Origin: Dictyostelium discoideum
Taxonomy: Eukaryota
DNA length: 64,000 nucleotides
Reading direction: 5' to 3'
Assembly: GCA_000004695.1 (NCBI GenBank)
Contig: CM000151.3
Span: 3,712,001 to 3,776,000 of the forward strand
Part shown: positions 3,460 through 64,000 of the stretch, one piece after another
How positions within the stretch are numbered: the first letter of the stretch is position 1
Layout of the letters: every line of letters starts with the position of its first letter
Notes under the pieces: generated by a model
Told to the model about the DNA's origin: nothing
Databases searched by the model: none
What the model saw: only the letters and a program-made list of their open reading frames with translations
Position numbers and translations under genes: made by a program

Positions 3460-3701
3460 ATATTTGTAGTAAATCAGATCCATTGATTATGGTTTTTGAC
3501 AAAAGAGGTGAACATGGTGAATCAATATTTGTAGGACAAACTGAAAAAATTAACAATAATTTAAATCCAGAATTTAAAAAATCAGTTATTATTGATTATC
3601 ATTTTGAAAATATTCAAAATCTTAGTTTTATTGTTGTTGATATTGATAAAGAAATTAAAAGAGTTGGTGATTTAGAAGGTAATGATATTATTGGTCAATA
3701 T
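3460..3701 (+). CDS. Copine gene, exon 2 (C2A domain)
   Basis: Acceptor caaatcag| at 3459; frame continues into the supplied ORF 3483..; donor tat|gtatgt at 3702. Confidence 0.75.
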
Positions 3702-3807
3702 GTATGTGTGTTTATATTTTTTTTTAATAATAATTATTTATTTTCATTGTTATTCAAATATTAATACTTTATTATTATTATTATTATTATTATTATTTCT
3801 GAAATAG

Positions 3808-5085
3808 ACAACAACATTAGGTAATATTATATCAAAACCAAATAAAAAAGTTATTAGCGAAATTAAACATAAAGGTAAAGAAACAGGTGTTATTGAGATA
3901 ACAGCAGAAGAAATTCGTGAAACTGGTCATAACTTTTTATTTAAAATTAATGGTACAAAATTGGATAAAAAAGATTTATTTACAAGTGACCCATATTTTA
4001 AGATTTATAAAACCTCATCAAGTGGTAATGTATTGGTTTATCAAAGTGTTGTAATTAAGAATACATTAAATCCAAATTATGAACCAGTGATGATGAAATT
4101 AGAGGAATTAAATAATGGTGATATGTTTAGAGAATTGGTATTTGAATTTTGGGATCATGATTCAGTTGGTGAGCATGATTTCATTGGATTATTCACAACC
4201 AATGCCGATACAGTTTTAAAAGGTATCACTAGAGAATTCCCGTTAATCAATGCAAAGAAAGCAGCTAAAAAATCAGGTTCCTATAAGAATTCTGGTGTAA
4301 TAACATTTACAGATTGTAGATTAGTTGGACAACCAACTTTTATAGATTACTTATCAGGTGGTTGTGAAATTAATTTAATGGTTGCAATTGATTGTACTGC
4401 AAGTAATGGTTCACCATCAACTTCAACTTCATTACATTATCACACACCAAGCCATCCAAGCCAATATGCAAAATCAATCTTTTCAGTTGGTTCAGTATTG
4501 GCACCATATGATTCTGATGGAAATATTGAGGTGTTGGGTTTTGGTGGTATTCATAGGGGTAGTACAAGTCATTGTTTCCAATTTGGTTCAAAAAAAGAAG
4601 TACGTGGTGTTGAGGGTGTTTTATTAACTTATGGTGAAGTTATACCATCAATGTCATTATCTTATCCAACCAATTTCAAAGATATCATTTCTTACGCTGC
4701 AAAGAAATCATTGGATGGTGTTACTTCAAAATCTCAAAAATATACTATACTCTTAATTTTAACCGATGGTGAAATCTCTGATATGAATGAAACAGTTCAT
4801 GAAATTGTTAAGGCTTCAAAACAATCACCTCTCTCTATAGTTATCATTGGTATTGGTGAAGCTACATTCGATAATATGAATAGATTGGATGGTGATGATG
4901 GTAATTCTTTAACTGATTCTTCAGGTCAAACTGCAACTCGTGATATCGTTCAATTCGTACCATTCAATAATTTCTCTGCAAATCCTGAAGCTTTAGCCAC
5001 TGAAACACTTCGTGAAATACCTCAACAATTACTTGGTTTTATGAACCAAAATAATTATTTACCAATGAGTCATAGATTAAAATAA
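3808..5085 (+). CDS. Copine gene, exon 3 (second C2 domain plus vWA domain with ...ILLILTDGEISDM...)
   Basis: Acceptor aaatag| at 3807 sits in frame with the long ORF 3961..5085. The C2-C2-vWA architecture is diagnostic of copines. The intron 3702..3807 contains (TTA)n. Confidence 0.85.
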   Translation, partial: TTTLGNIISKPNKKVISEIKHKGKETGVIEITAEEIRETGHNFLFKINGTKLDKKDLFTSDPYFKIYKTSSSGNVLVYQSVVIKNTLNPNYEPVMMKLEELNNGDMFRELVFEFWDHDSVGEHDFIGLFTTNADTVLKGITREFPLINAKKAAKKSGSYKNSGVITFTDCRLVGQPTFIDYLSGGCEINLMVAIDCTASNGSPSTSTSLHYHTPSHPSQYAKSIFSVGSVLAPYDSDGNIEVLGFGGIHRGSTSHCFQFGSKKEVRGVEGVLLTYGEVIPSMSLSYPTNFKDIISYAAKKSLDGVTSKSQKYTILLILTDGEISDMNETVHEIVKASKQSPLSIVIIGIGEATFDNMNRLDGDDGNSLTDSSGQTATRDIVQFVPFNNFSANPEALATETLREIPQQLLGFMNQNNYLPMSHRLK

Positions 5086-18174: not shown

Positions 18175-18637
18175 GGCCGGTTCACAGAAAAAAAAAAAAA
18201 AAAAAAAAATAAAAATAAAAAAAAAAAAAATAAAAATAAAAAAAAAAATAAATAAAATTTAAACTAATTATTGCTTCTAAAATTAAAAATAAAAATATAG
18301 ACTTTAAAATAGCCATTTTAAATACGTTTTTAAAATCTCTCGATAATCACATTAATTTTTTTTTTTTTTTTTTTTTTCAAATTTTTTTTTTTTTTTTATT
18401 TTTTTATTTTTTTTTTTTTTAAAGCATTATCAGACATTCACAAATACACACACAAACACACATTTTTCACTAATTCACATACAATTTAGAGATAAACATA
18501 AAAAAAATCTTTAAAATAATAATAAAAAAATTAATAAATAAAAATAAAAATAAAAATAAAAATAAAAATAAAAATAAAAACAAACAAATAAATAAAAAAC
18601 TTTGTTATTGTGTGAATTACCATAGTTATAGTTTGTC

Positions 18638-18671
<34 letters not shown>

Positions 18672-54664: not shown

Positions 54665-56654
54665 TTATGATGTTTTTGTATGATTGGATTTTTAAATTTT
54701 AAAGTGAGAAAAAAATTTAGGAACTTCGGACGAAAGTTGAAAATTTTTTTTTTTTTTTTTTTTCCGGCAAAAATGAAAAATATTTAATAAAAAAAAATTG
54801 AGCGAATATAGCCACTTCCACAATATACATATAAAAGAGCTTTATTTTTTGTATTTGTTAATTTTAATTAATATTGAGATATAGTAAATTTTGAGGCTTG
54901 TCAACAACGAGAATCGATGCCTGAATCTGAGGAAAAATAAAAATCTATGGTTTACCGGTGACTCGACCAATGAGTAATGGTAGACGTAGAATTAAATTCT
55001 AAGTTGAAATCACTTGATCCGGTTTATCTACGGGGTCATTAAGGTACCAAAAATTAAAATTACTGAAAAAAAAATTTTAAAAAATTTTCAAAAATTTTTT
55101 TATATGGAGAAATTTTTTTTCGGAAAATCGAAAAAAATTCTGCGCGTAAATCGTCTCGTTAAAATTTAATTCTTTTTGAGTATGTTAATGATCTATCGTG
55201 TATCTAACTTCTGTATTTCGCTTTTTGCACTCAATTTTTTTTTATTAAATATTCAATCGAATCTTTGGCGGGTGGTAAGTGAAAAATCACCATTTTTCCC
55301 AAGTTTTTTTTGGTGTAAGGAGGCTAAGTAAAAAGTCCCTCGTGTTCACTCGACCGACGGTTCCTAGTAAGCTTTCCAGAGCATTTGGGATAATCTGACA
55401 CAAGATCGTATTTTAAAGGGGGGTACTGGACCCCCTAAAAAATTCGCCAAGTTGACACACCAAAAACAGTGTTTTTTCGTGGATTTTTCAAGGAACTTTA
55501 TAGATATTTTAATTAACGAAATTGAGTGAATGTAGACCCATAAAAGTAGCAACTAGACTCAATGAGAGATATTCTGACACATTTTACCAAATAGCTTATG
55601 TGCATATAGTGAATATAAAGACTGGGGACGAAAAGTGAAAATTTTCCAATAAATTCAAAAATTGGTGTATTTTAGCGAAAAATTTAAATGGTGTCGTTCC
55701 TTATCAATCAAAGTTTTTTTAAAAGATAGATATTTTAATTTTACACTTACTGTTACCTCACGGCAGAGTCAACCAAGTAACACAATTTTTTATTTAACTC
55801 GGAAGTTCGTAAAAATATGACATTGGATCCTCATTTACAGATTACAGTGGTTTTATGGTGAGTCGACCGTGAGGTAACTGTAATTAGTTATATTCTTGGC
55901 GATGTTAATGTATTTTTCCGTTTTTGCCTAGGGGGTCACGATCAAAACTTATTAAAATTTTGGCGCCAAAAAATTTTTCATATAAAAAAAAAAAAAATTA
56001 ATGTGAGAAATTTCAATTTGGAGGTTCGAAAAAAATTCGAAAAAAATATGTACTATTTTTTTATTCCAATGATTTTTAGATATAATATAGCTGAAAATGA
56101 GGGCTATCTTTTGTATGTCTTACTTTTTAAATGGCAAGTTAAAAAAAAAATTGGTTTACAAAAAACTTTCTCAAGTACCCCCTATTTTTGGGGGTAAAAA
56201 AGTGCAAAATTTCACTGTAACTTTCATAAATATTACTCCTATTTAGTTCACTCGACCGACGGTTCCTAGTAAGCTTTCCAGATGTACTGACACAGCCTCG
56301 AAACAACGCGCGTAGTCTGGCGGGTCAAATAGACCCCTAAAAAAATTCTGAAAAAATCGCTGTTTTTTGGTGTTTTTTCGTAGGTGATAACTTTTCATTA
56401 AAATAAAAGGAATATTACTCGTAGGATTTAAAAACGTATATGTTTTTAAACATTCTCAAATTTATAGAAAATTTATAGGAAATAGGAACAATTTACTTAT
56501 GAATGATTTTTAAATATAAAAACCCCGATCCATTTTTGAAAAATCGATTTTTTTTAAATTTTTAGCGAAAAATATTTAAATTTTTAAAATGACTTTAAAT
56601 TTGAACCGGACTTTGATTTTTATAGATTACTAGTCATTTGACATCAACACATCA
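54665..56654. repeat. Complex GC-richer non-coding repeat block with internal direct and inverted repeats, abutting the N gap
   Basis: A 37-nt direct repeat gttcactcgaccgacggttcctagtaagctttccaga at 55344 and 56246. The motif cccctaaaaaa(a)ttc follows both copies. A 16-nt inverted repeat tactgttacctcacgg / ccgtgaggtaactgta at 55755 and 55868. No ORF longer than 65 codons. Confidence 0.5.
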
Positions 56655-56754
56655 NNNNNNNNNNNNNNNNNNNNNNNNNNNNNNNNNNNNNNNNNNNNNN
56701 NNNNNNNNNNNNNNNNNNNNNNNNNNNNNNNNNNNNNNNNNNNNNNNNNNNNNN
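56655..56754. other. Assembly gap (100 N)
   Basis: Run of n characters in the sequence. Confidence 0.99.
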
Positions 56755-56885
56755 AAAATTGGGGTGCACCAAAATTTACATCAGCAGAGAGATTTGAAGC
56801 ACAATTTAGTAAAATTAAAGACCTTTTGACAAACAATACAAACAACCAAGATCAACATAAATTTGAAAGAGTAAAAAAAATATTA

Positions 56886-57287
56886 ATGGCAACATTTTTA
56901 GATAATTTTAACAATCTAAAAGAAAAAGATGATGACAATAATGATTTAATTTTAGGGCAAATAATTAAAAAAAATGAAAATATTTATTTAAAAAATAATA
57001 TTTTATCAGACATTAACTTGCATTACAAAAACATTGAAAATATTCAATTTCATAAATCAATTAAAAATTTAAAAGAAATATATAATGTTGGTGATGGAAT
57101 TGAAGTTGCCTCAGAAAATTCATTAACTGGACGATGGAGTGCAATAATTATTGCTATTTGTTTAATAGAATTAAAAAATAAAAAAAGTGCACATTCTATT
57201 TATATACAATACTTTGATAAAGATACAGGTGATCAAAATAATAAGTACCACTTTTTAAGAAAAAGCTTTTCAAGTATAACATATTAA
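56886..57287 (+). CDS. Orphan ORF (133 aa from the first ATG) immediately downstream of the assembly gap
   Basis: Open frame bounded upstream by tga at 56823; coding status and completeness unknown; may be an exon of a gene interrupted by the gap. Confidence 0.3.
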   Translation: MATFLDNFNNLKEKDDDNNDLILGQIIKKNENIYLKNNILSDINLHYKNIENIQFHKSIKNLKEIYNVGDGIEVASENSLTGRWSAIIIAICLIELKNKKSAHSIYIQYFDKDTGDQNNKYHFLRKSFSSITY

Positions 57288-57396
57288 ACACATTAATACC
57301 AATACAAATCGATTCGTCTAACTATCTTATAATTTATAAGTGCCATGACCAATTTTCAATAAGTAAAAAAAAAAAATGAAAAAAATTCGTTGAACT

Positions 57397-57598
57397 CACA
57401 GCGAAGAAAAAACCACCTTTAAATTCGCTTTAAATTAAATTTAAATTTGCTTTAAAGTCCTGAATTAAAGCAATTTTAAAGGTAATTTTAAAGGTAATTT
57501 TTAAGGTTACTTTAAAATTACCTTTAAAATTACCTTTAAAATTACCTTTTTAATCGCTTTAAAAGCGAGGTCCTGAGTTCGAAGCCGTTATTTAACGG
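57397..57598. repeat. Outer terminal inverted repeat, left arm
   Basis: Reverse-complement match to 62690-62902. Rich in the motif aaaggtaatttt. Contains the B-box-like gagttcgaagcc. Confidence 0.7.
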
Positions 57599-57796
57599 AT
57601 AAATTTTTTAAATTTTTTTTTTTAATTTTTCAAAAATTACCAAAAGGGATTCGATCCCCCGACCCTCTATTAAAGGGTAGTCTCATCAACCATTACACCA
57701 TTTGATTGCTTTGATGAAAAATTTAAAAATGATAGAATATTTTATCCCCATTTTTTTGTTCTAAAATTAGATCTTTTTTATTAAAAACCTTTAATT

Positions 57797-58010
57797 TATG
57801 TTTAAAGGAAATTTAAATTCACTTTAAATCTACTTTAAATCCTATTTAAAATTAATTTAAAATAAATTTTAAAGGTATTTTTAAATGTCTTAAAAATTAT
57901 CTTAAATTTACCTTAAAAATCACCTTTAAAATCACCTTTAAAATCACCTTTAAAATTGCTTAAAAATTTATTTTAAAGCAAATTTTAAAGGCATTTTTAA
58001 ATATCTTAAA
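57797..58010. repeat. Inner inverted repeat, left arm ((tttaaaggt/aatttta) periodic motif)
   Basis: Reverse-complement match to 59701-59930 over more than 200 nt with few mismatches. Confidence 0.7.
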
Positions 58011-58259
58011 AATTACCTTAAAAATTACCTTAAAAATGAATTTTTTAAACGCGGCTTTAAATTCAATTTAAATCCAATTTAAATCAACTTTTCTTTAAAT
58101 TTGCTTTAAAGGTGCATTTTTCTTTGCTGTGCTTATTTACATAACTTTTACATTTTTACGTAACTTTTTCTTTTTTTTTTTTCTTTTTTCCAATTTTCTT
58201 TTTTTTCGGTTGGAAATTATAGGATTTTAAAAAAAAATTAAAAAAATATTATAAAAAAA

Positions 58260-58541
58260 ATGACTCACAATAATTCTGCATCATTTGAAACACCAAATAG
58301 AAGTGGTAATTATGTAAATAGATCATCTTTAACTTCACCAACATCACCAATAACACCAATCACATCTCTTATTTTAAATCAAACTGATACCTCCATAGGT
58401 CCACAACGTACTGTTAGAAGACAACAAAGACCTCAAAGACCAAATGCAAGTCATCCACCAACAACAAATATTGTAGAAAAAATATTGGTGTATGAAACAT
58501 TGCACAGAAATTGTGTTTCTCAATACTATGCAACTGGTAAG
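58260..58541 (+). CDS. Gene inside the IR-bounded element, exon 1 (S/T/P-rich N-terminus ...CVSQYYATGK)
   Basis: ATG at 58260; donor aag|gtaaga at 58542. Confidence 0.5.
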
Positions 58542-58549
58542 GTAAGATA

Positions 58550-58594
<45 letters not shown>

Positions 58595-58635
58595 AAGAGA
58601 CTAATTAAATTAAATAAACAAAAATAATACATAAG

Positions 58636-58854
58636 ATTTCCTCTCGTTTTATTAGGACCTGTATATTAAATGCTGGCGGTACAAATTCAAATGAAAATAA
58701 AGTTGTTCTATCCAAATTGGTTAAATGGGTCAACAATAAACGTGGTAACACACGTATTAAAGCCCTAAATACCCTTAGACTTTTAGTTAGAAATAAAGTA
58801 GAACAGTTCAGCGAGTTGCTCTCTCAGGTTCCACCATTAATGGAGTATGAATCG
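58636..58854 (+). CDS. Gene inside the IR-bounded element, exon 2 (ISSRFIRTCILNAGG...KVVLSKLVKWVNNKRGNTRIKALNTLRLLVRNKVEQFSELLSQVPPLMEYES)
   Basis: A phase-0 acceptor cataag| at 58635 is needed for frame continuity; the nearer ttattag| at 58660 is out of phase. Donor tcg|gtatgt at 58855. Codons are GC-richer than the genome norm. Confidence 0.4.
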
Positions 58855-58963
58855 GTATGTAAAAAAAAAAAAAAAATAAAAAATAAAAAAAAAATAAAAA
58901 AAAAAAAAAAAAAAAAATAAATTATTAATAATTTGTTTTTTTAATTTTTTAATTATTATTTAG

Positions 58964-59233
58964 ATAACTCCTTTTGATTTGGCCACTCTTATTATCGATA
59001 CAGTTACCTTAGAAGCTTTTGACTCCGATCCTTTTGTAAAGTTCTTAGTGTCTCAATGCTTTACAATTGAAGAAAAAGAATGGTACAGCGGTTCCAAACC
59101 TCTTATTTCTTTAATAGTTAAAGCATTGCGTGGTGTTTCTCAAAAGTTCATTGACTCTCCTGATGAACTTACTTACACTGAAAAGGTTGCTTTTGAATTC
59201 ACTTCAATACCTCTTTATGCTCCACTAAATTAA
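58964..59233 (+). CDS. Gene inside the IR-bounded element, exon 3 (ITPFDLATLIIDTVTLEAFDSDPFVKFLVSQCF...LYAPLN*); ARM/HEAT-like helical repeats
   Basis: Acceptor tatttag| at 58963, in frame with ORF 58979..59233. Confidence 0.5.
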   Translation: MTPFDLATLIIDTVTLEAFDSDPFVKFLVSQCFTIEEKEWYSGSKPLISLIVKALRGVSQKFIDSPDELTYTEKVAFEFTSIPLYAPLN

Positions 59234-59499
59234 ATCGTTTAAATAAAAAAAATTAATATGATTTCACATACTCAACTTTAATTTTTTCTTTTTTTTTTAA
59301 ATCTTTTTTTAATTTTTATTTTAAATTATTTTTTTTAATTTTTATTTTTAAAGTGATATTATTAATATATCTTATCAAGTTAACTTTATAATATAAATTT
59401 ATAAATGCACTTTTAAATTGAATTTTATAAATATAATTAATAAGAATACTTAATAAGTGTACTTACAAAGAGTACATTATAATTATAATTAGTAATTAC

Positions 59500-59702
59500 G
59501 CTTAATAATTATACTTAATAAGTATATTTAATAAGTATACTTAATAAGTATACTTAATAAGTATATTTAATAAGTATACTTAATAAGTATACTTAATAAG
59601 TATATTTAATAAGTATACTTAATAAGTATACTTAATAAGTATATTTAATAAGTATACTTAATAAGTATACTTAATAAGTATATTTAATAAGTATACTTAA
59701 TA
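59500..59702. repeat. Tandem array of about 16 copies of a 13-nt palindromic unit (TAATAAGTATACT/TAATAAGTATATT) with a 39-nt super-period
   Basis: Directly visible. The unit contains the palindrome AGTATACT. A related palindromic copy lies at 60040-60095. Confidence 0.85.
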
Positions 59703-59930
59703 ATATTTAAAAATGCCTTTAAAATTTGCTTTAAAATAAATTTTTAAGCAATTTTAAAGGTGATTTTAAAGGTGATTTTAAAGGTAATTTTTAAGGTAAT
59801 TTTTAAGATAATTTTTAAGATATTTAAAAATACCTTTAAAATTTATTTTAAATTAATTTTAAATAGGATTTAAAGTAGAATTAAAGTGAATTTAAAGTGA
59901 ATTTAAATTTCCTTTAAACATAAATATTAT
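59701..59930. repeat. Inner inverted repeat, right arm
   Basis: Reverse complement of 57797-58010. Confidence 0.7.
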
Positions 59931-60137
59931 TTTTTTCGTTAAAAAAAAAAAATTCCAAAATTTTTTATTTTTTTTTGTGTTAAAAAAAAATTCCTAAATT
60001 TTTTTTTTTATTGTATTTTTTTTCATCACACCATTATAAATTCTATGTACTTAATAAGTATTACTTATTAAGTATACTTATTAATATATATTAAAAAGAG
60101 TACTTGGATTTAAAGGTGCTTTAAAGTGTTGATTTTC

Positions 60138-62470
60138 GCCGCTGTGTGGATTGGTATCGACTCTACTGATTGTTTGGTCAATACTTCTTGGAATGTTCCC
60201 AGTACTTGAGGAAACATATGACGATGATGACGAGGAACTTGAGCTTGAATCATCGGATACCAAGTTGCTGATCTCCAGATTGGGAAGATCAGTATTATAG
60301 AAACCTTCTTCGAACTGGATGAGTTCATCTTCTCCAGTATAGAAGGCAAAAGAATGGGTGGTGGAAAGGCCAGACATTACTTATATTGACTCCAATCGAG
60401 GTGGAGTGCATTCATTCTGATTGTTGAGTAGTTGTTCGTTTGATGGTTGAGGTGAGATGCGAACAGATCCATCTGTATTTGACCGAATTGAAGTTGCCAG
60501 TTGTAACTCTTGATTACTCTGGTCGATGATATGTGATTCATCTCTGAAAGACGACTGAGGTGGTCGGCTTTTACATTATTCATAATATATATATATATGA
60601 TAATATAAATTAAATTTTTAAATCTTATTCATAATATATATATATATATATATGATAATATAAATTACCAGCCTTATTCTTAATCACAAGCTTGTGTTCG
60701 AGTTTACTTAAAAAATACTACAAATATGTATGTTGTAACTCTTCCACTAAAGAATCCAGCTCTCCACGGTATGCTTGCTGTAGTTCTGCCTCATGAGCCT
60801 GGAGACGTTCCTCAGGAGACAAGCTATGGCTGAACGAATTAGACAGAATAACACCACGAGGGATACCGTAGTGGGATAGGTTAGATGCCTTCATAACAAA
60901 CCAGAAGTTTAACAGCCAACTCACTACCATGTCATTGTTAGAGACTCAAAACTAAATTAATTTAAAGTTAGTTTGAGCTCAACAACATAACAAATTCGCG
61001 CATCTCCATGTAAAAATATTTCATTTAATTTTTGTTTTTTATTTTTTATTTTTTCAGTCAAAAAATAAAATTAAAAAAATTAAATAAAATTAAAATTTAA
61101 AAAAATAATAAAAATTCTGATTTTCGGTTTAGTTAGATAACGCCCTTACATTCAATTATCTGTTTTATGTATGTTTACTTTTATGATGTTAGTCTTTCAC
61201 TCTTTCTATCCTTCATATGGAATGACATTAGATTAAAGATTGGACTAGTTCGGTTAAAGATTGAACAAATGTGACAATGGATTGAAGATTAGTGTGAGAA
61301 ACTTTTACAGTCATCGTATCCAGACGCCTTGTGGTCAATACGACCATTCTTAACAACCAGACTGGTGATCTCATTAATCAGCGTTTTATCGTGAGTAACA
61401 CGACCAGCGCGTTTAGCCGCTTCAGGTAGGACTTCACCGTACAGTGTCAACGCGATTCGGCTGTAGTAACGAACCCAAACTTGTTACGCACGTCATCGTA
61501 GAAATAACTACCACGAGGACGCAGTGGATTGTTAACCATAGCAGCTGCATTTTTATCCACCTTCACCTCTTCAACAATCCAGTTAAAAATATGTTTGAAT
61601 GGATCAATACCTTGTAACGGCGAATTTAATCAGGTTAGTTTCATTACAACCCCCTGCATCTACTGTAACCATATCACGAATGTAAGTAAACACTAAACCA
61701 ATGGCATCTCTACCGATCGCTTCCGAGGGATCCATCCCTAGTAGAATGTGTGCCCCTTCGTTAATTTCTCATGTCGATCTTTTGGTATGTGTCAGCCGAT
61801 ACTGTAACCGTCTTTGGAACTCAGTCCACAGTGGGTCACGTTCATAGTCACGGATAATGTTGTTTAGCTCAGTTGACAGAGGTGAACGTAAAGAACCTGA
61901 TGTCCAGCGGTTAAAGAAGTCACGGTCTGCTTCTTTAATTTTAACACCGGAGTTCTGCAATGCGTCACGCAGCCATTCTTTATCCAAACCAAGCTGACGA
62001 TAACTCCACGTCCCGTTAATCATAATAAGCGCACCTTTCTTACCGATGAGTTTGATTAATACGGTACGTAGTTCTTCCTGGTTTCTCAGGTCTATGATGG
62101 TCTTTAACCCAAAGATAAGACGGCAGTAGATCGCGAATCTCTTTTAATCGGTCGAAGTTAGACCGTCAGTAGTGCGTCATCCTTCGTAATCAGGTTAATG
62201 CTGATGGTATCTGACGAACCAGACTTACCGGTCTGACGGGGATTAACATGTAGTCGATGTGGTTATAGAAGCTCCAGATCAAACTCAGGTTAGCACGGTT
62301 TGCTTTAAAAGGACGCGGCGTTGCACCCGCAGAGAATCTAACGACCTCACGATAGTAATACCATGGGTTGAATCGACATTCGATAGCGAATTAATTTCTT
62401 ATGACAGATCGGTGGCAAATGGATCCACTGACTTAATTCCTGTTGAAGGAGACTAAGCATGAATGTACAG
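60138..62470 (-). mobile_element. GC-richer (about 45-50% GC) exon-like blocks of a degenerate integrase/RNase-H-like gene, possibly a transposase, interrupted by AT-rich intron-like spacers
   Basis: Minus-strand open frames at 62023-61769, 61610-61300, 60930-60718, 60583-60377 and 60377-60081 sit in different phases. Motifs NNVKADHLSR (like N..ADALSR at the RNase H/integrase junction) and IDHKASGYDD (like RT/IN D.K.SGY). A GTAAAAG donor-like site falls exactly at the GC-to-AT transition at 61300. An AT-rich spacer spans 60940-61300. Confidence 0.4.
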
Positions 62471-62689
62471 TTCTCAACACCCATTTCTTTATAAAGATTT
62501 AGAAATTCAAGTTAATCAAATAATATTAATATTGTATTTGTATTCAAAGTGAAAAACTAAATTTTTCGAAAAACGAAAAACTTCGTAAAGTATCAAAATA
62601 CTTTACAAAAATTCAAAAAAAAATTCAAAAAAAAATTCAAAAAAAAATTCAAAAAAAAATTCAAAAAAAAAAAATTTAAAAAAATTTAT

Positions 62690-62902
62690 CCGTTAAATAA
62701 CGGCTTCGAACTCCGGACCTCGCTTTTAAAGGATTAAAAAGCTAATTTTTAAGGTAATTTTAAAGGTATTTTTTAAGGTGATTTTAAAGTAAACTTAAAA
62801 ATTACCTTTAAAATTACCTTAAAAATTGCTTTAATTCAGGACTTTAAATTCGCTTTAAATTAAATTTAAATTTGCTTTAAAGGAGGATTTTTCTTCGCTG
62901 TG
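62690..62902. repeat. Outer terminal inverted repeat, right arm
   Basis: Reverse complement of 57397-57598. Confidence 0.7.
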
Positions 62903-62939
62903 GAATAAGCTGAGTTATTTCGAAAAAAGTTTATTTTTT

Positions 62940-63990
62940 TTTGACAAATTTTGCATGTTTTTTTTTTTTTTTTTTAATAAAACACATTATTTAAAACAAA
63001 AATTTTAAATAATATAAAACAATATTTGTTAAGACCTATCGTAGAATTAAATTTGGTTGTATTTATGGAGAAATAAAGAAAATATAAAAAAAAATGAACT
63101 TCGAAAAAAAAAAAAGGAACTTCAAAAAAAAAAAACTACATAAAATTTTTGTTTTAAATAATGGGGGACCTATCAGTGAATAATTGAATTAATTTTGAAA
63201 AAAAAAAGTTATTTTGAAAAAGATCGAGTTATCCCGGAAAAGATCAATCTTTTCGCGAAAAATTTTTCATTGGCCATATTATTTTTTTTTTTTTTAATTT
63301 TTTTCATTTATTCACAATTAAAATAAAAAATATAATAAATAAATAAATAAATAAAATAAATAGTATGATTGACAAAAAAAAATCAAAAATACCAGGGCTC
63401 AAATAAAGGATTTATTTTTTATATGTAGTTTTTTTTTTTTAAGTTCCTTTTTTTTTTCGAAATTCATTTTTTTTTATATTTTTTTTATTTCTCTATAAAT
63501 ACAACCAAATTTAATTCTACGACAGTCTTTACAAATATTGTTTTATATTATTTAAAATTTTTGTTTTAAATAATGTGTTTTATTAAAAAAAAAAAAAAAA
63601 AAAACATATGAAAAGTGAAAAATTTTTCAAAAAAAAATAAACTTTTTTCGAAATAACTCAATTTATTCCGGGATAACTCGATCTTTTTCAAAATAACTTT
63701 ATTTATTCAGAATTAATTCAATTATCCACTGATAGGTCCATTATTTAAAATTTTTGTTTTAAATAATGTGTTTTATTAAAAAAAAAAAAAAAAAAACATA
63801 TAAAATTTGAAAAAATTTCGAAAAAAAAAACTTTTTTTGAAATAAATGAATTTATTCTGAGATAACTCGATCTTTTTTAAAATATGCTGAGTTAATTATA
63901 ACAGAAATTTTTACTTTATTTTTTATTTTTTATTTTTTATTTTATTGACTAAATTATTTTTAAAAAAACAATTACAGATAATATTGAAGC
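62940..63990. repeat. Cluster of inverted and direct repeats at the window end (unit ...ttaataaaacacattatttaaaacaaaaattttaaataatataaaacaatatttgt...)
   Basis: 62960-63130 is the reverse complement of 63455-63595. A further partial copy lies at 63720-63790. Interspersed motifs ataactcgatc and ttcgaaa. Confidence 0.6.
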
Positions 63991-64000
63991 AGGTGAAATA

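Follow-up and report, generated by a model that had tools for sequence, protein, structure and literature searches.

A probable molecular fossil of a jumbo-phage terminase gene in nuclear DNA of the Dictyostelium discoideum AX4 lineage

Near the high-coordinate end of a 64,000-nucleotide (nt) stretch of Dictyostelium discoideum DNA (assembly GCA_000004695.1, contig CM000151.3, forward-strand positions 3,712,001 to 3,776,000; hereafter the window, whose own numbering is used below) lies a group of GC-rich blocks that look foreign to their surroundings. What are these blocks, and how did they come to reside in the chromosome of an amoeba? A preliminary description had placed them at 60138-62470 and had suggested a transposon or retroelement integrase gene, either split by introns or decayed. 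Our analysis indicates that the foreign-looking stretch is not an integrase gene with introns but three separate things: a pseudogene of a phage terminase large subunit (TerL), a solo long terminal repeat (LTR) and a fragment of a DIRS-1 element, all three assigned from sequence comparisons. We consider it very probable that the first of these is the non-functional fossil of a transfer of terL from a jumbo phage into the nuclear genome of the AX4 lineage.

The composition of the stretch sets it apart from the host. Mean GC reaches 41-44% over the blocks of 60149-62511 versus ~20% for the window overall, along which GC per kb varies from ~14 to 33%. The individual blocks have 41.1% (60149-60583), 42.2% (60688-60938) and 43.9% (61310-62493), the highest value of any 200-bp window within them being 48.5%, and the pieces between them have 11.5% (60584-60687) and 23.5% (60939-61309). 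Furthermore, the terminase-aligned codons contain, per 1000, 35.8 CTG, 11.2 GCG, 42.5 CGT and 11.2 ACG, versus 0.9, 0.3, 3.9 and 0.0, respectively, in the host open reading frames (ORFs) of the same window, and their GC content at third codon positions (GC3) is 0.43 versus 0.12. The preliminary description was therefore right to list CTG, GCG and CGT as nearly absent from host ORFs, but GGT, also on its list, is frequent in the host too (44.7 versus 29.8) and has no discriminating value. All the peptides that it quoted were found on the minus strand, in differing frames, and composition, codon counts and shifting frames agree with its picture of GC-rich coding-like blocks in broken frames. Its limits were also adequate, except that the high-coordinate end reaches slightly farther, to ~62511.

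What did these blocks encode? When 50,697 phage records were searched by blastn (word size 11), one extended match was obtained, to Erwinia phage pEa_SNUABM_54 (272,635 bp), in a 706-aa coding sequence annotated as hypothetical (QXO10957.1). The homology consists of five collinear blocks, each 72-78% identical in nucleotides, and is collinear over TerL aa ~26-669, with E values of 6e-99 (tblastn to the protein) and as low as 2e-97 (blastn). The nearest relatives, at 75-77% nt identity, are pEa_SNUABM_54 and three IMG/VR contigs (UViG_3300031414_000013, UViG_3300031414_000009 and UViG_3300031087_000015); amino acid identity to them is 62-72% over 339 repaired residues. Weaker blastn matches were obtained to other phages with genomes of 212-305 kb, in which the matching genes bear the annotation terminase large subunit. 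Moreover, the repaired protein matches 293 phage records, and the best 30 of these 293 all come from genomes larger than 200 kb; many of these 30 are annotated as terminase large subunit, and they include PhiPA3 and the Erwinia phages Ea35-70, RAY and Deimos-Minion. Hence, 60688-62511 on the minus strand can be assigned as a collinear pseudogene of a jumbo-phage TerL.

This classification is based on PHROGs, on annotated phage homologues and on a profile-to-PDB match. The PHROG family 'terminase large subunit' is matched by the repaired pseudogene (E 4.5e-21) and by the intact phage protein (E 3e-43). No Pfam family matches either the repaired pseudogene block or the intact phage TerL, so that no Pfam model detects this clade, and a PDB search with the single phage TerL sequence found nothing. 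A 26-member family profile (A3) searched against PDB matches the nuclease domain of RB49/T4 gp17 (3C6A, 3CPE and 3EZK; E 2e-9 to 3e-8), in an alignment that covers the conserved catalytic 'lDtSEa' and 'hDDmv' motifs (D and DD). The pseudogene keeps these acidic nuclease residues, in MDPSEA and GYDD, and it also retains a putative Walker-A relic (PRQTGKSGSS, ~62212-62241), readable in a shifted frame only; it resembles a jumbo-phage TerL in that both acidic motifs, and in this limited form the Walker-A relic, are still recognisable.

These motifs bear on the integrase proposal. IDHKASGYDD, for which a loose resemblance to the D.K.SGY motif had been noted, is not such an integrase motif; in the profile alignment it proves to be the final acidic motif of the nuclease domain of the terminase. 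Terminase nucleases of this kind fold like RNase H, as established for T4 gp17, which explains the loose resemblance of the motif. Part of the stretch (60167-60583, described below) is moreover truly derived from a DIRS-1 retroelement, with an ADHLSR motif and a Dam-like domain. However, none of rve, RVT, RNase H and Integrase_H2C2 was found by Pfam at E<=1 in the repaired 479-aa translation, and the 1.8-kb block to which an integrase or transposase had been ascribed is collinear with TerL at 72-78% nt identity. In addition, what had been taken for an intron is an LTR flanked by a target-site duplication (TSD), and the other 'introns' of a gene model predicted there in a second assembly consist of GC-rich sequence homologous to terminase. 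An integrase/RNase H gene of a Dictyostelium transposon or retroelement, with introns or decayed, is thus exceedingly improbable; it is refuted for 60688-62511 and holds only for the DIRS fragment.

How badly is the terminase gene damaged? Mapped on QXO10957.1 by tblastn and blastn, the minus-strand pseudogene falls into five segments. Segment 1 (62189-62511, aa ~26-137) covers the N-terminal ATPase part and holds 1-, 7- and 4-nt deletions as well as the one clear nonsense change (phage IKNKIA to IRN*FA). Segment 2 (62099-62195, aa 147-179) is preceded by a 36-nt deletion and followed by a deletion of ~327 nt that removed ~110 residues of the ATPase domain (aa ~179-287). Segment 3 (61620-62098, aa ~288-450) contains the first catalytic nuclease motif, LGMDPSEAIGRD, and 63 nt that are out of frame between a 2-nt and a 1-nt deletion (61816 and 61753). 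Segment 4 (61310-61619, aa ~485-588) comes after the third internal deletion (~105 nt, aa 451-486) and ends in the nuclease motif GRIDHKASGYDD. Segment 5 (60688-60935, aa 589-669), in which homology stops abruptly at 60688, includes a 31-nt micro-inversion in place (60708-60738), where phage nt 1957-1987 match at 93.5% in the orientation opposite to that of the surroundings. Altogether, small indels of 1, 7, 4, 2 and 1 nt and at least nine frame switches were found, and both termini are lost (the first ~25 and the last 37 codons of TerL).

The frame changes had been attributed to either several introns or decay. The switches are due to 1-7-nt indels within GC-rich sequence, which speaks against introns, and together with the deletions and the stop codon they confirm that foreign-looking coding DNA has decayed to a pseudogene. 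Sequencing errors were ruled out as their cause, since the host ORFs of the window, with much poly-N and poly-Q, are intact up to 1530 aa and a second assembly is identical. Unlike a phage TerL, the pseudogene is not an ORF, has lost both ends and stands in a eukaryotic chromosome without other phage genes. It is not an intact translatable gene in a phage packaging context, hence a relic of TerL and not a working member of the family. A tblastx search with 7.9 kb of the phage locus gave matches to terL only and to no neighbouring phage gene, and only part of one phage gene appears to be present. The transferred piece would comprise at least 1.9 kb of terL.

The AT-rich block between segments 4 and 5 (60940-61300) had been regarded as an intron, with a GTAAAAG donor-like site at its border. 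This motif does exist (minus strand, 61303-61309), not as a splice donor, however, but as the TGTAAAAG with which an LTR terminates. The sequence 60936-61309 (plus strand, 374 bp) runs from TGTTAGAG to CTTTTACA, has TG...CA termini and lies between two perfect copies of the 5-bp target-site duplication GTCAT, read from the sequence at 60931-60935 and 61310-61314. It is the solo LTR of a Ty3/gypsy-type retrotransposon inserted in the terminase pseudogene; in Dictyostelium, such retrotransposons are of the Skipper or DGLT type. Removal of the LTR and of one GTCAT restores ...SGYDDMVVSW..., to be compared with ...SGHDDMVISW... in the phage. A spliceosomal intron was also considered for the AT-rich blocks and rejected, since the frame returns only by removing the LTR, with its TG...CA borders, and one TSD copy.

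The LTR aligns end to end with positions 3566-3844 of a locus (L011) of strain ACTFIR, and also with positions 18344-18661 of locus L003. The ACTFIR copy directly follows a polypurine tract (AAAGAAGGAAGGGGAAGG) and lies downstream of a pol gene in which RVT_1, RT_RNaseH, Integrase_H2C2 and rve were recognised. The LTR resembles Ty3/gypsy solo LTRs in its TG...CA ends, in its 5-bp target duplication and in having a homologue behind a reverse transcriptase-RNase H-integrase gene; it differs in being only ~73-82% identical to the two compared copies, both of which belong to other strains. Since the LTR lies inside terminase sequence, the terminase DNA was already in place before the retrotransposon inserted.

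The terminase DNA is in turn framed by a host repeat. An intact copy of this ~750-bp terminal inverted repeat (TIR) element, which we call R and which may belong to the thug or the DDT family, lies at 57396-58139, with termini CACAGCGAAGAAAA...TTTGCTGTG and many short repeats of the tttaaaggtaa type. On the high-coordinate side of the phage-derived DNA, 62655-62907 (minus strand) is the left arm of another copy (R positions ~8-243, 86% identity to 57397-57630); on the low-coordinate side, 59703-59949 (minus strand) corresponds to internal R positions ~385-615, with 93-97% identity to 57794-58004. Hence, a 2.7-kb composite (59950-62654) replaces R positions ~244-384 within one R copy. In strain ACTFIR, the intact copy is missing and its place is a clean empty site marked by a CT duplication of 2 bp; R is therefore mobile and polymorphic. 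Elements of the R family are nested in one another; in ACTFIR, a 2.08-kb element with TIRs of this type lies inside an R copy. Past the assembly gap of the window, no fewer than three further full R copies and one partial copy were found (L002, 15944-18864, in the second D. discoideum assembly, GCA_054883475.1). The possibility that the 2.7-kb block is the coding core of an autonomous TIR element was rejected, since other long copies hold a nested non-coding TIR element instead.

The centre of R (57630-57720) contains tRNA-like pieces, with T-arm-like motifs GGGATTCGATCCCC and GAGTTCGAAGCC; precisely this portion has been replaced in the R copy bearing the phage fragment. ARAGORN found no tRNA over the window, and Rfam gave only sub-threshold microRNA-like matches, on hairpin repeats of TIR elements.

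Could the phage DNA be an artefact? According to the preliminary description, a collinear match to a bacterial or phage genome with an uninterrupted ORF would point to contamination or a chimera. Such a match exists, the ORF being uninterrupted in the phage, but independent evidence excludes the conclusion. Phage DNA that stemmed from food bacteria or a cloning host and became joined to amoeba DNA in silico or in vitro would account for the phage-like composition and codon use and for the 75-77% nt identity to enterobacterial jumbo phages; the 3' limit of homology also falls on a HindIII site, and an assembly gap (56655-56754) lies 3.4 kb from the block. However, assembly GCA_054883475.1 (4.9-Mb contig) matches window positions 56755-64000 at 99.8%, is base-identical over 59000-64000 and is continuous where the N gap of the window begins. 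Furthermore, a Dictyostelium LTR with a 5-bp target duplication sits inside the phage-derived ORF, at least nine frame changes and three deletions are present in what would be expected to be intact in a contaminant, and the substitutions, detailed below, are AT-biased and independent of codon position. The block has no match in complete E. coli genomes or PLSDB plasmids (blastn, word size 11). An origin by contamination or chimeric assembly is accordingly highly unlikely, and the second assembly, the internal host LTR with its TSD, the host TIR arms and the AT-biased decay together exclude it. The earlier statement that the DNA is not bacterial contamination thus holds on the strength of the second assembly, the host LTR and the decay, but not on the exon/intron structure that had been given as its ground. 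What is expected of a horizontal transfer was found here: linkage to host DNA in the second assembly, followed after transfer by an LTR insertion and AT-biased decay.

In GCA_054883475.1, two genes have been predicted on the pseudogene, ACTFIT_003308 (191 aa) and a 188-aa neighbour (L002 10001-11038 and 11550-12404, corresponding to window 62484-61447 and 60935-60081). Both look like annotation artefacts spliced around frameshifts; for ACTFIT_003308, this is suggested by introns that skip GC-rich sequence itself homologous to terminase coding sequence.

Did the fragment ever serve the amoeba? To address its decay, pEa_SNUABM_54 and the three IMG/VR contigs were aligned by codons and the pseudogene was mapped on them (1369 shared sites; the further loci L013 and L015 are identical). 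At sites invariant in the four phages, the pseudogene shows changes in 8.4% of first, 6.5% of second and 18.6% of third codon positions, versus 1-2, 0.5-1 and 10-19%, respectively, in phage tip lineages. Of the 370 phage-invariant residues, 43 are altered. The changes private to the pseudogene comprise 53 GC-to-AT and 21 AT-to-GC substitutions (11.2% per GC site versus 4.2% per AT site), compared with a ratio of ~1:1 in the phages, and GC is 43.8% in the pseudogene versus 47.5-48.3% in the phages. The pseudogene thus appears to have drifted neutrally under the AT-biased mutation pressure of the host. Branch lengths of the three clades and the excess at position 2 would roughly place neutral substitution since the transfer at ~2-6%.

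A domesticated or recently functional terminase, serving the amoeba or the TIR element, for instance as a transposase-like nuclease, or still expressed as the 191-aa and 188-aa models, could be proposed because the fragment lies between two arms of one TIR copy in consistent orientation and because an annotation pipeline called genes on it. The transposases of Dictyostelium DNA transposons have also been reported to be unlike any known transposase (PMC5633606). Much of the divergence is at third codon positions, although selection in the lineage of the donor phage would explain this just as well. Against such a role, only one copy was found, its GC3 of 0.43 and its CTG- and CGT-rich usage are scarcely adjusted to the host GC3 of 0.12, and its start, its end, ~110 ATPase residues and the Walker-A frame are lost. 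Moreover, other R copies lack such an insert, which here replaces R sequence and is not bounded by R ends, and the rate of change at codon positions 1 and 2 is 4-13 times that of phage tip lineages. Domestication or recent function is thus very unlikely, if marginally less so than the integrase gene or contamination. The fragment, whose start and end are absent, shows no sign of function in the amoeba at any time, as far as can be judged from its sequence, and would today be an inert molecular fossil.

From which virus did it come? The pseudogene differs by 21-25% from each of two phage clades, which differ by ~22% from each other. These similar distances to both clades imply a third, unsampled lineage, and the donor would be a relative of pEa_SNUABM_54 from among the phiKZ-related jumbo phages that infect Gram-negative bacteria. 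A search of IMG/VR, JGI metagenomes and GTDB genomes yielded no closer donor, nothing exceeding ~77% nt identity. Among the species genomes of GTDB, no relative exceeds 38% identity, and three of the four found lie on metagenome-assembled genome (MAG) contigs of 209-259 kb.

A eukaryotic virus (with a herpes-like or mirusvirus terminase) or the prophage of a bacterial symbiont could be considered as a source instead of a lytic jumbo phage directly. Terminase-like genes in protist genomes are reported to be usually of mirusvirus or herpes-like origin. Paraburkholderia symbionts are carried by Dictyostelium (PMC12724192), which makes a symbiont prophage conceivable. However, the nearest sequences are pEa_SNUABM_54 and large phage contigs (62-72% aa, 75-77% nt), with phiKZ-related phages as the next tier, and three of the four bacterial-genome relatives lie on contigs that resemble mis-binned phage genomes. 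Neither source can be given more than a very low probability. The phage relatives of the pEa_SNUABM_54 kind are lytic. Together with the presence of only distant MAG copies in bacterial genomes, this makes a direct route from phage to amoeba likelier than a route via a prophage.

The third component of the stretch adjoins the terminase. At 60167-60583 (minus strand), ~139 codons (~420 bp) form a DIRS-1-type fragment, comprising the end of RNase H (NVKADHLSR) and a Dam-like methyltransferase domain; it is interrupted by one stop codon and, compared with other copies, shortened by an internal deletion. Pfam PF05869 (Dam) matches it with E 7e-10 and 39.2 bits, above the curated cut-off of 28.1. 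It is 65-91% identical to many DIRS-like models of D. discoideum, one of them with a PF00589 tyrosine recombinase domain and another with a Dam domain. The preliminary description had taken NNVKADHLSR as an RNase H end that leads into an HHCC integrase finger; the motif is indeed that of a retroelement RNase H end, but it is followed by the Dam-like domain. The fragment thus resembles DIRS-1 in the succession of an ADHLSR end and a Dam-like domain, and differs from it in being a damaged internal piece without reverse transcriptase, recombinase or terminal repeats. It is not a complete DIRS-1 element, its flanks being an AT-rich spacer and a TIR-like end. The spacer (60584-60687, GC 11.5%) separates it from the phage-derived DNA. 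The TIR-like end (60100-60166, ...gattttcgccgctgtg), adjoining the fragment on the other side, belongs to the host TIR-element family, as judged by eye against the R termini (57399 and 58131) and the nested element in ACTFIR. A direct duplication of ~40 bp (ttattcataatata(ta)n tgataatataaatta) occupies 60576-60667, the first of its two copies overlapping with the beginning of the DIRS fragment.

How might these pieces have been brought together? Phage DNA was probably taken up by the bacterivorous amoeba, either from phage-infected prey or as ingested virions. It would then have served as filler when a break inside a copy of the host TIR element was repaired by end joining; the suggestion of filler capture stems from the replacement, and not mere interruption, of R sequence and from the patchwork of unrelated fragments. 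The DIRS-1 fragment and the TIR-end fragment would have been captured together with the phage DNA or nearby. A Ty3/gypsy retrotransposon later inserted and recombined down to a solo LTR. A stronger version, in which a single break-repair event joined lytic jumbo-phage DNA to DIRS-1 DNA within a transposon cluster and ingested phage DNA can enter the germline nucleus of a bacterivorous amoeba, is a speculative and rather improbable proposal.

Is the insertion shared by other amoebae? In ACTFIR, full coverage (11.1 kb) is available from the aldolase gene to the orthologue of DDB_G0274765, a host gene of the window described below; this interval contains other elements in place of the terminase, without any terminase sequence. 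In ACTFIW, the 10 kb beyond the aldolase gene, which represent that part of the interval only, also contain none. At the aldolase locus, D. citrinum, D. cf. discoideum and D. firmibasis show no terminase match either, which is uninformative since synteny is lost. Among 5.8 billion proteins of a database, ACTFIT_003308 is the only terminase-related Dictyostelium protein model. Hence, the insertion is either restricted to the AX4-type lineage or lost elsewhere. The flanking DNA of ACTFIR and ACTFIW shows ~3-4% substitutions relative to AX4 (from statistics of high-scoring segment pairs) and many indels around the aldolase gene. This divergence is larger than expected within one species, and the gene order on both sides of aldolase is different again in the three other species named above.

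Several points weigh against a transfer of phage DNA as reconstructed here. The phage homology stops exactly at an AAGCTT (HindIII) site (60688-60693), which could be the trace of an in-vitro artefact, although we take it as a coincidence given the second assembly and the pattern of decay. The second assembly is independent as data and not as biology, since it probably comes from the same laboratory lineage. The interval is rearranged in ACTFIR and ACTFIW and provides no clean empty site, so that loss is inseparable from non-acquisition. The entry route (phagocytosis followed by break repair) is only inferred, with no junction microhomology or donor sequence. The composite could also stem from several separate events instead of one. 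Lastly, the comparison covered individual loci, and further copies or other phage fragments may exist elsewhere in Dictyostelium genomes.

The surroundings of the fossil are a transposon graveyard that adjoins an assembly gap. The N gap (56655-56754) is preceded by non-coding sequence (54700-56654) with moderately GC-rich islands and internal repeats that run up to it; tcactcgaccgacggttcctagtaagctttccag occurs there at ~55347 and ~56250, and this is probably an unclassified repeat. The host gene at 58260-59233 (256 aa, three exons) encodes a spliced protein exactly equal to DDB_G0274765 of strain AX4, which lies on a record of 8,484,197 bp, presumably chromosome 2. This protein falls in a 19-member cluster at >=90% identity, with paralogues on several large AX4 records of up to 8.48 Mb and on contigs of other strains; it behaves as a multi-copy gene family and may move along with repeat clusters. 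Between DDB_G0274765 and the R arm, at 59430-59700, a tandem 13-bp unit (cttaataagtata/t) is palindromic over ~270 bp, and similar arrays lie at the corresponding place in ACTFIR. On the other side, next to the R arm, 62902-63669 is a hairpin-type repeat with ~245-bp inverted arms (62902-63145 and 63418-63669) that are ~90% complementary; a further partial copy of an arm occupies 63740-63815, and related sequence is present in ACTFIW and ACTFIR. The fructose-bisphosphate aldolase gene, seen in GCA_054883475.1, lies 3.4 kb past the end of the window. In such a graveyard, the locus might now produce small RNAs.

Fossils of foreign DNA are well known in eukaryotic nuclear genomes, for instance endogenous viral elements and the inserts of Wolbachia and of phage WO in insects. 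The present locus shares with such relics of horizontal gene transfer (HGT) the location of foreign DNA in host repeats, its neutral decay and its drift towards host composition. It differs from them in that the donor is a lytic jumbo bacteriophage instead of a eukaryotic virus or a resident endosymbiont and the recipient a free-living bacterivorous amoeba. The D. discoideum genome study reportedly lists roughly 18 bacterial HGT candidates, and in the full-text literature on Dictyostelium, phage, terminase and HGT we found no description of this locus. To our knowledge, phage-to-eukaryote transfers are rarely documented, and most reported cases accompany an endosymbiont.

A dead, horizontally acquired fragment is a known kind of object, and no new molecular mechanism is revealed by it. 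Here, however, a model phagotroph carries a strictly phage gene from a jumbo-phage lineage in its nuclear genome, and support for the authenticity of this gene is unusually good, since it comes from an internal host LTR with a TSD, from a second assembly and from a decay that is AT-biased and independent of codon position. In practice, two predicted genes are probably artefacts, and the pseudogene provides a neutral marker for the mutation spectra and the strain history of Dictyostelium. If a single break-repair event did take place, it would represent a direct route of gene flow from phage to eukaryote. More generally, the locus supports the idea that bacterivory exposes amoeba genomes to foreign DNA, including phage DNA, and that most of these acquisitions are dead on arrival.

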